Shown in pieces: positions 35,715-36,095 of a DNA stretch of 64,000 bases. The notes under the pieces were generated by a model. It made no database searches, was not told the origin of the DNA, and saw nothing but the letters and a program-made list of their open reading frames with translations. The stretch is from Nitrosopumilaceae archaeon (GTDB lineage: Archaea; Thermoproteota; Nitrososphaeria; Nitrososphaerales; Nitrosopumilaceae). The stretch is from contig OZ242376.1 in assembly GCA_965209085.1 (NCBI GenBank), positions 544,001 through 608,000 of the forward strand, given 5' to 3'. The position numbers and the translations under genes were made by a program. The first letter of the stretch is position 1; each line of letters starts with the position of its first letter.

Positions 35715-35803
35715 TTATTTTCAAATTAATTGTAAATATGTAACTAGCATTTTGTATCAAAGTTTGCCATTTATTCGTATGAGGTCAACTATTAAACGAT
35801 ATT

Positions 35804-35821
35804 AGAGTTTATCCATGTGAA
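35804..35821 (-). mobile_element. IS110 right-end stub joined to the tip of an IS-A TIR
   Basis: Reverse complement of 35801-35821 is TTCACATGGAT-AA-ACTCT-AAT, the same junction as 17630-17647. Confidence 0.8.
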
Positions 35822-36095
35822 TAGGTCATGTCACAACCTACCTAATTCTGACATTTTGACTAAAACGATATTAAAATATTCAATTTGGCGACAATTTTGA
35901 TTCCAAAGATTTAGATCATCCTACAAAGTGGACGAATTATGAGAAACACCCACGGAGATGATTCACTATGAATAAAAAACACTGTAATAAAAACATTGAA
36001 TGCAGAGACCAAAGAAGTGGATAAAAAAAGGATTGCCGAGAAAAACCTGAAAAACCGTGCTGCACCATATTGTTTGGTCATGTGAGCTAGTTTGC
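35822..36095 (+). mobile_element. IS-B left end and decayed 5' transposase
   Basis: TAGGTCATGTCACAAC; aligns to 931-1210. Confidence 0.9.

Follow-up and report, generated by a model that had tools for sequence, protein, structure and literature searches.

Probable RNA-guided insertion of the archaeal IS1111-type element IS110-A into the terminal inverted repeats of IS5-like elements and MITEs

In one stretch of an archaeal genome, three right ends of an IS110-family element run into the same few bases, and at one of them, near 35801, only a short piece of the element is left. Do these bases belong to the element, do they mark a target that it selects by sequence, or were the junctions spread in some other way? 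The stretch, here called the window, is 64,000 nt long and covers positions 544,001-608,000 of a 1.69-Mb single contig with 41% G+C. The host is an ammonia-oxidising archaeon, and its genome has a dense content of insertion sequences (IS) and MITEs. Our reading is that the element, IS110-A, is very probably guided by an RNA into terminal inverted repeats (TIRs) of the type carried by the IS5-like element IS-A.

IS110-A, its junctions and the target sequence

The three junction strings were found where the earlier note on this DNA had placed them, at 17637-17650 (GGATAAACTCTATT), at 13246-13259 (GGATAAACTTTATT) and, as the reverse complement, at 35801-35814 (GGATAAACTCTAAT). All three read GGA-TA-AAC(T/C)TT/AACTCT, then ATT or AAT, then unique sequence, and the flanks past the triplet are unlike one another, as that note had also claimed. 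With up to one mismatch, the 13-mer TTCACATGGATAA occurs three times in the window against 0.29 expected occurrences, and three was reached in none of 100 shuffles. The features concerned are shown in Table 1.

Table 1. Positions in the window of the IS110-A copies, the elements that adjoin or host them, and the predicted RNA
Feature	Position	Strand	Remarks
IS110-A copy 1, 5'-truncated	12772..13250	+	Keeps the 3' non-coding region; guide strand TTAGATTTT at 13060-13068; core TA 13249-13250
Target flank of copy 1	13251..13259	+	Tip with one mismatch (AACTTT), then triplet ATT
IS-A variant hosting IS110-A copy 2	13559..14901	-	About 88% identical to IS-A; inner ...TATGCA ends at 14901; tip at 17642-17647
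IS110-A copy 2	14902..17641	+	Core TA 14902-14903; body from 14904; GGA 17637-17639; core TA 17640-17641
IS-A inside IS110-A copy 2	15669..17068	+	AAT duplication 15666-15668 / 17069-17071; both TIRs of TG type
3' non-coding region of copy 2 with predicted bridge/seek RNA	17436..17639	+	Two loop modules
Target loop of copy 2 (predicted)	Stem arm 17445-17451; right-target guide 17452-17460; hairpin 17461-17474	+	
Target loop of copy 2, 3' side (predicted)	Left-target guide TGCATAA 17477-17483; stem arm 17484-17489	+	
Donor loop guides of copy 2 (predicted)	17513-17520 and 17536-17543	+	
Target flank of copy 2	17642..17650	+	Tip AACTCT 17642-17647, triplet ATT 17648-17650; then IS-A 3' fragment to 17857
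TIR tip AACTCT (35804-35809) with duplication AAT (35801-35803)	35801..35809	-	9 of 9 nt complementary to loop strand UUAGAGUUU
IS110-A right-end remnant	35810..35821	-	TTCACATGGA plus core TA; remainder of the element lost
IS-C 5' fragment	35822..36098	+	Adjoins the remnant at 35822; itself truncated at 36098

IS110-A is an IS1111-type member of the IS110 family. Judged from its sequence, the true boundaries enclose 1335 bp with one TA counted as the core, and they contain a DEDD transposase gene followed by a 3' non-coding region; about 205 nt are non-coding 3' of the stop codon and 8-137 nt on the 5' side, by the start codon chosen. The transposase matched PF01548 (DEDD_Tnp_IS110, 7.3e-28), PF02371 (Transposase_20, 1.3e-21), the NCBIfam model NF033542, "IS110 family RNA-guided transposase" (219 bits, cut-off 140), and the ISCro4 and IS621 transposases in the PDB, the solved bacterial homologues being about 30% alike or less and in the C-terminal domain only. 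In the ISCro4 alignment, the D of fvgmDv, the E of vmEs, the motif TDkrDA and the S of rnSad lie opposite D, E, D..D and S of the solved protein, and these residues (D, E, D, D and a C-terminal serine) we take to be the catalytic ones.

The subterminal inverted repeat of IS110-A, ATGTGAA / TTCACAT, is 7 bp long, at the short end of the published range; in relatives it reads ATGTGCC / GGCACAT. The terminal extensions are TAACCAT on the left, with the core counted on that side, and GGA on the right, and the only duplication seen is the shared core dinucleotide TA at both junctions. Eight full-length copies and about 10 fragments were found in the genome, and the transposase frame is intact in only two of the eight, those at genome positions 156.3-157.7 kb and 693.6-694.9 kb; in copy 2 of the window, the gene is interrupted by the IS-A insertion listed in Table 1.

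The genome-wide collection of flanks proposed in the earlier note was carried out, and NNNTCT+ANT was present after 15 of 18 IS110-A right ends (17 distinct loci; two share a flank). These junctions have the form ...TTCACATGGA-TA-NNNTCT-ANT, with unique sequence beyond. The three near-misses are AACTTT+ATT (copy 1 of the window), AGGTCC+ATT, and a tip one nucleotide shorter. As background, NNNTCT+ANT follows 346 of the 226,014 genomic TA dinucleotides (0.15%). On the other side, TATGCA precedes 11 of 12 left ends, in the form ...TATGCA-TA-ACCATATGTG, and this TATGCA is the inner part of an IS-A-type TIR. Reassembled, the occupied site reads TATGCA-TA-NNNTCT+ANT and corresponds to the 14 outermost nt of an IS-A-type TIR with the duplication; 31 ends of the form TATGCA-TA-NNNTCT-ANT are uninterrupted in the genome. 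The six bases after the core TA are AACTCT, AGGTCT, CGGTCT, ACCTCT or TGGTCT and vary with the host element; by their left flanks, the copies lie in the right end of IS-A, the left end of an IS-A variant, the MITE in both orientations, and one non-TIR site.

The claim that all three window junctions fall in an IS-A-type TIR is confirmed by the genome-wide pattern, although the three are unequally informative: the 35801 site is a 12-nt remnant, and the 13246 site is the right end of a 5'-truncated fragment of 480 bp whose left side is lost. The non-TIR site belongs to the copy at genome positions 683421-682079 and reads CAGTTA-TA-AGGTCC-ATT. Its right half matches the target and only the TA of its left half does, and the insertion looks like a natural half-match off-target event.

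The earlier note had divided the junction as GGAT-AA-ACTCT. A TIR tip does follow the right end, but the crossover lies one base further left, at GGA-TA-AACTCT, and six TIR bases stand on the right instead of five. No dinucleotide other than TA stands at both junctions, whether in IS110-A, in IS110-B (a paralogue with 60% identity) or in the relatives found in four other genomes; the left junction is ...T followed by AACCATATGTG or a variant, and the right junction is CACATRGA followed by TA. A core of AT or AA was considered and rejected, because TA alone occurs at both junctions in all relatives and flanks of the AC type fit only AT/TA. TIR ends exist in TA and TG types at this position. Of the TA type, 16 of 47 ends are occupied (16 vs. 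31 unoccupied), whereas only one of 43 is in the TG type (1 vs. 42; Fisher p = 8.6e-5), and in the lone case of an occupied TG-type end, the element is a fragment and its own end is altered as well. The TG-type TIRs include both ends of the 99%-identical IS-A copies, which are presumably the youngest.

IS-A is 1400 bp long and IS5-like, with the ends AGACCTCATGCATAAT... and ...ATTATGCATGAACTCT; it matched DDE_Tnp_4, and the IS5-family models remained below their cut-offs. It duplicates a 3-bp ANT: a single AAT in an intact IS110 copy corresponds to AAT-IS-A-AAT in copy 2 of the window. This occupied/empty pair confirmed that the triplet after the tip is of the kind that IS-A duplicates, as had been proposed. 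Among the eight IS-A copies listed, the triplets match in five, are mismatched in one, and are unclear or degenerate in two. The IS-A-type TIR contains a 10-bp palindrome, TTATGCATAA, and is also present on older IS-A variants (about 88% identical) and on a 78-bp MITE.

One of these variants hosts IS110-A copy 2, which splits its TIR, and the uninterrupted TIR at genome position 855422 is that of an unoccupied paralogue of this host. The triplets of the copy 2 host are unmatched, with AAT at 13556-13558 and ATT at 17648-17650. The IS-A variant that hosts the paralogue of copy 2 at 963 kb (genome 961845/964540) also has unmatched triplets, ATT/AAT. The unmatched triplets of both hosts suggest recombination between repeated elements after insertion. 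In addition, at some IS110-A copies the left flank comes from a MITE and the tip is of the IS-A type.

The remnant at 35801 and the neighbouring IS-C

The 12-mer that remains at 35801 occurs 15 times in the genome; 14 of these are IS110-A right ends, and one, at genome position 104252, is a chance copy without a TIR tip. Positions 35802-35810 are identical to TTAGAGTTT at 17452-17460, so that the match of 9 nt between this site and the guide region, reported earlier, is confirmed. The remnant adjoins a truncated IS-C. Full-length IS-C is an IS5-like DDE element of 1438 bp with the TIR TAGGTCATRTCACAAC and 8-bp duplications in five full copies; it matched DDE_Tnp_1, and the IS5-family model was below its cut-off. 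The possibility that 35822-36098 is a second IS110-type element was rejected, because it belongs to this IS5-like DDE element, which has TIRs of its own and makes 8-bp duplications. The stump would have arisen when IS-C inserted into the right end of a resident IS110-A whose far side was later lost.

It could be argued that 35801-35822 is a chance or divergent TIR-like sequence that merely lies beside IS-C. The IS110-derived part of the site is just 12 nt, a chance copy of the 12-mer does exist at 104252, and the IS-C copy at genome position 878301 has beside it a similar ATTAGAGTTTATC... string, which diverges further on. However, the chance 12-mer has no TIR tip after it, the 21-nt string of the 35801 site is also the junction of the copy at genome position 964532 (a 23-nt exact match), and an insertion by IS-C, with its 8-bp duplications, 8-13 nt inside a right end would leave exactly such a stump. 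We consider it highly improbable that the site is anything other than an IS110-A remnant.

IS-C has its own relation to these ends. Six of 11 IS-C copies lie in or beside an IS-A-type TIR or its IS110-occupied form, three of them exactly 18 nt from the tip, and IS-C may be a second element that prefers the TTATGCATAA palindrome. At the copy at 878301, the flank is ATTAGAGTTTATC and then CGTATGAGG; it resembles a TIR tip that runs straight into ...ACGAT, without the TATGCAT heptamer.

Two other repeats were observed in this part of the window. Positions 36091-36714 hold a repeat of about 550 nt with six copies and an ORF at 36209-36703, which elsewhere flanks the right end of IS110-B. The guide strand of IS110-B matches this flank (ATATACTGCG). 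The segment in the window carries a MITE at 36577-36660 and is without IS110-B, and its identification as IS110-B itself was rejected, since the sequence is the repeat that flanks the IS110-B right end at other loci. Further on, at 42650-62400, there are at least 14 tandem units of about 1.1 kb that are 75-100% identical and have a higher-order period of about 6 kb; this array looks like a giant repetitive gene.

A predicted guide RNA in IS110-A and its relatives

The most likely product of the 3' non-coding region of IS110-A is a bridge/seek RNA that has two internal loops. RNAalifold, run unguided on 10 sequences from five genomes, gave two modules, each made of an outer stem, an internal loop and a hairpin. 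In this consensus, 96.2% of the cells are paired vs. 37-48% when the partners are slid, and eight pairs are changed on both sides vs. 3.2 ± 1.3 in shuffles (eight was reached in 0 of 500), both counts being made on the same sequences from which the consensus structure was derived. The fold of the 3' non-coding region as a single sequence was no better than that of shuffles (z = -1.46), and a search of three IS110-A/IS110-B loci against Rfam (4227 families, E up to 1) gave no match.

The 5' strand of the target loop, UUAGAGUUU, is the exact antisense of A-AACTCT-AA in the right flank, and the 3' strand, UGCAUAA, is sense to the left flank and equals TGCA-TA-A. The core TA is where the two matches overlap. 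The donor loop contains AUGGUU, the antisense of AACCAT at the left end, and AUGGAUA, which has the sense of the right end. UUAGAGUUU (17452-17460) lies 5' of UGCAUAA (17477-17483), which is the IS1111 order, with the complement of the top strand first.

Within the genome, the four copies with an AGAGUUU guide all lie at ACTCT tips. The 10 copies with an AGACUUU guide lie at GGTC tips (six copies), at CCTCT (one) and at ACTCT (three). The AGACUUU guide can form eight Watson-Crick pairs and one U:G pair at the GGTC tips and has a C:C mismatch at the ACTCT tips (3 of 10 copies), and the guide of copy 1 in the window fits its own flank at just six of nine positions. The association between guide and tip has a Fisher p of 0.07 among copies that are related to each other; it is weak, and on these sequences it appears to be a tendency rather than a rule.

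A contig-wide search for related loci gave a single match, to a 55% relative, and a search by genome yielded more. We compared guides with flanks in a matrix of nine elements. In four of them (IS110-A, IS110-B, G001_a and G001_b), 8-10 contiguous positions of the right-target guide pair with the cognate flank, and non-cognate flanks mostly give 3-6 positions. G001_b, G002 and G015 have left-target guides that are identical to their left flanks over 7-8 nt. In the same matrix, the left-target guides of IS110-B, G001_a and G033_a have no match to their left flanks, and the right guides of G015 and G033_a fit their own flanks poorly. The 55%-identical relative, from a MAG (L006), has kept the donor-loop module, and its 3' non-coding region contains no recognisable target-loop module.

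The TIR family is abundant in the sister genome G001, with 40 pattern matches vs. 0 in the control. All seven G001 copies examined lie at GGA-TA-TGCATA(A/C)NNTCT-ANT, which is the same TIR family entered 6 nt further in (12 nt from the tip vs. 6). The loop strands are changed to fit, to UCUUAUGCAUU and GGUCAAUAA, and one G001 copy has a G in the guide where the flank reads ACG. The same pattern search in G002 gave 0 matches, and the single G002 element adjoins a CGGTCT-AAT tip. That guides and targets change together is clearer across genomes than within this one.

[quoted passage not shown] The target would be the outer TIR of IS-A, of its older variants and of the 78-bp MITEs, always entered in one orientation and 6 nt from the tip, and all three junctions of the window would be products of such RNA-guided insertion. 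Junction statistics, tip variation, uninterrupted targets, complementarity, conserved structure and protein family were observed directly; that the RNA is made, is bound by the transposase and directs recombination via a circle is what we infer. Among the assembled contigs of four sequencing runs, neither the circle junction nor a MITE-only form of the locus at 156-157 kb was listed.

Other explanations and known systems

The earlier note had taken the shared junction as independent support for sequence-specific targeting. The targeting itself is supported by the junction statistics on both sides, the uninterrupted TIR variants, and the complementarity of guide and flank here and in relatives. 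The independence is partial: copies could have recombined with one another or moved together with the host element, and some of the junctions may have spread in this manner instead of by fresh targeting. Since flanks have been reshuffled (the AAT/ATT triplets of the copy 2 host and the mixed MITE/IS-A flanks), the independent insertions number fewer than 17. Carried further, this would mean that IS110-A entered a TIR once or a few times, after which the IS-A transposase moved the host MITE or IS together with its rider and the junctions were inherited. The copies at genome positions 157655, 260071 and 694899 lie in near-identical MITEs, each a composite with a matching 3-bp triplet. The outer end left by insertion, AGACCGTATcCAT, also agrees with the intact TIR, AGACCGTATgCAT, at 12 of 13 nt. 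At the 156-157 kb locus, a low-depth contig of run X4 connects both flanks directly and lacks 1416 nt between them, the length of the triplet, the MITE and IS110 together, so that the latter two are both absent there; this joint is to be viewed with caution, as it was placed at 90% likeness with a 36-nt side. We nevertheless find co-mobilisation very unlikely as the source of all junctions. The copies lie in at least four host contexts and in one non-TIR site, and the tips differ (CGGTCT, ACCTCT) within one context; guide complementarity and its change in relatives would be left unexplained, and the first entries into TIRs would still need targeting. Repeated targeted insertion is still required to account for the variety of hosts and tips, for the off-target copy and for the way in which the relatives behave.

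If insertion is targeted, the transposase protein alone might read the TTATGCATAA palindrome, with the guide matches coincidental. A 10-bp palindrome is present in the TIR, and IS-C is also found in or beside it in 6 of 11 cases, which could indicate a structural hot spot. But the loop sequences co-vary with the flanks in relatives aimed at unrelated sequences, the register shift in G001 is accompanied by matching guide changes, and it is the asymmetric right half that fixes insertion in a single orientation. In addition, the family carries RNA guidance in its name (NF033542) and has been shown to be RNA-guided (PMC11208160; PMC11187229), and we regard recognition by protein alone as barely credible. 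Least of all do we expect AACTCT or ACTCT with the triplet to be part of the IS110 end, the case that the earlier note had set against its own reading. It is true that ACT(C/T)T occurs at all three window copies. Genome-wide, however, the bases after GGATAA vary (ACTCT, GGTCT, CCTCT), and the tips AACTCT, AGGTCT, CGGTCT, ACCTCT and TGGTCT track the host element; the same 14-mers are uninterrupted 31 times, and the left flank provides the remainder of the TIR. Because the tip varies with the host and 31 TIR ends are uninterrupted, it is target and not IS110-A sequence. RNA-guided entry of IS110-A into IS-A-type TIRs is thus the reading that we retain.

A wider and in our view unlikely scenario is a layered contest between transposons, in which IS1111-type elements of this archaeal genus would have been re-aimed repeatedly along one IS5-like TIR, rider and host could possibly be mobilised together, and TG would be an escape allele. 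If true, TG at the crossover would make the youngest IS-A lineage immune to the rider, and an insertion that leaves or regenerates 12 of 13 nt of the outer TIR might allow the host MITE or IS and the rider to remain mobilisable together.

The permissive TA core and the refractory TG core are two versions of one target in a single genome, and the 6-nt shift is a natural re-aiming along the same target in a sister species; among archaeal IS1111-type elements, IS110-A provides a clean case from nature of a target chosen by RNA guidance. For work on bridge recombinases, it adds a TA-core, archaeal, right-end-encoded predicted guide RNA with several natural guide variants. For annotation, its targeting accounts for the nested IS/MITE mosaics of the genome. 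The accepted picture of how IS110/IS1111 elements work is unchanged.

Entry of IS1111-type elements into TIRs is itself already known. Partridge and Hall reportedly described in 2003 that IS4321 and IS5075, of the IS1111 group, enter the 38-bp TIRs of Tn21-family transposons at a single position and with a single orientation. IS110-A is like them in being of the IS1111 type, in having subterminal repeats, and in the restriction to one site and one direction within the TIR of a different transposon. It differs in its archaeal host, in a subterminal repeat of just 7 bp, and in a target that is the TIR of an IS5-like IS or MITE and not of a Tn3-family transposon.

RNA-guided target choice by IS110/IS1111 elements was established in 2024 (PMC11208160; PMC11187229) and is likewise known. 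What is new here is the archaeal host, the IS5-like/MITE target, the TA core, of which a refractory TG variant occurs naturally, and the change of register from one sister genome to the other. A search of literature titles found none on this targeting, and the supplementary target logos and ISfinder tables of PMC11187229 and PMC11208160 might list archaeal relatives.

In PMC11187229, the IS1111 order is given as the complement of the top strand 5' of the match to the bottom strand, with the reverse in the IS110 type, and IS1111 elements are described with subterminal repeats and with terminal extensions that measure 7 bp at the left end and 3 bp at the right. Subterminal inverted repeats of IS1111 elements are usually 11-13 bp long, with 7-17 bp given in PMC11208160, which also presents the two-loop logic, the core covered by both guides, and the right-end RNA of IS1111 elements. 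Like the seekRNAs of ISEc11, ISPa11 and ISKpn4, as far as they are described in PMC11187229, the predicted RNA of IS110-A lies in a non-coding region downstream of the transposase and has the same guide order and overlapping matches; the 7/3-bp terminal extensions and the natural re-programming among relatives are shared as well. The target of IS110-A differs from theirs.

With the bridge RNA of IS621 (PMC11208160), IS110-A shares two internal loops with left and right guides in each, pairing to opposite strands, and a core dinucleotide covered by both guides, at which a mismatch works against recombination. As a member of the IS110 group, IS621 has a left-end RNA, the reversed guide order, a CT core and a REP target, whereas in IS110-A the RNA is predicted in the right end and the core is TA. 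ISPpu9 and ISPpu10, found in REP sequences of Pseudomonas putida, are likewise IS110-family elements confined to one repeated sequence that contains a palindrome; their targets are REP elements of the host, and those of IS110-A are the ends of other transposons.
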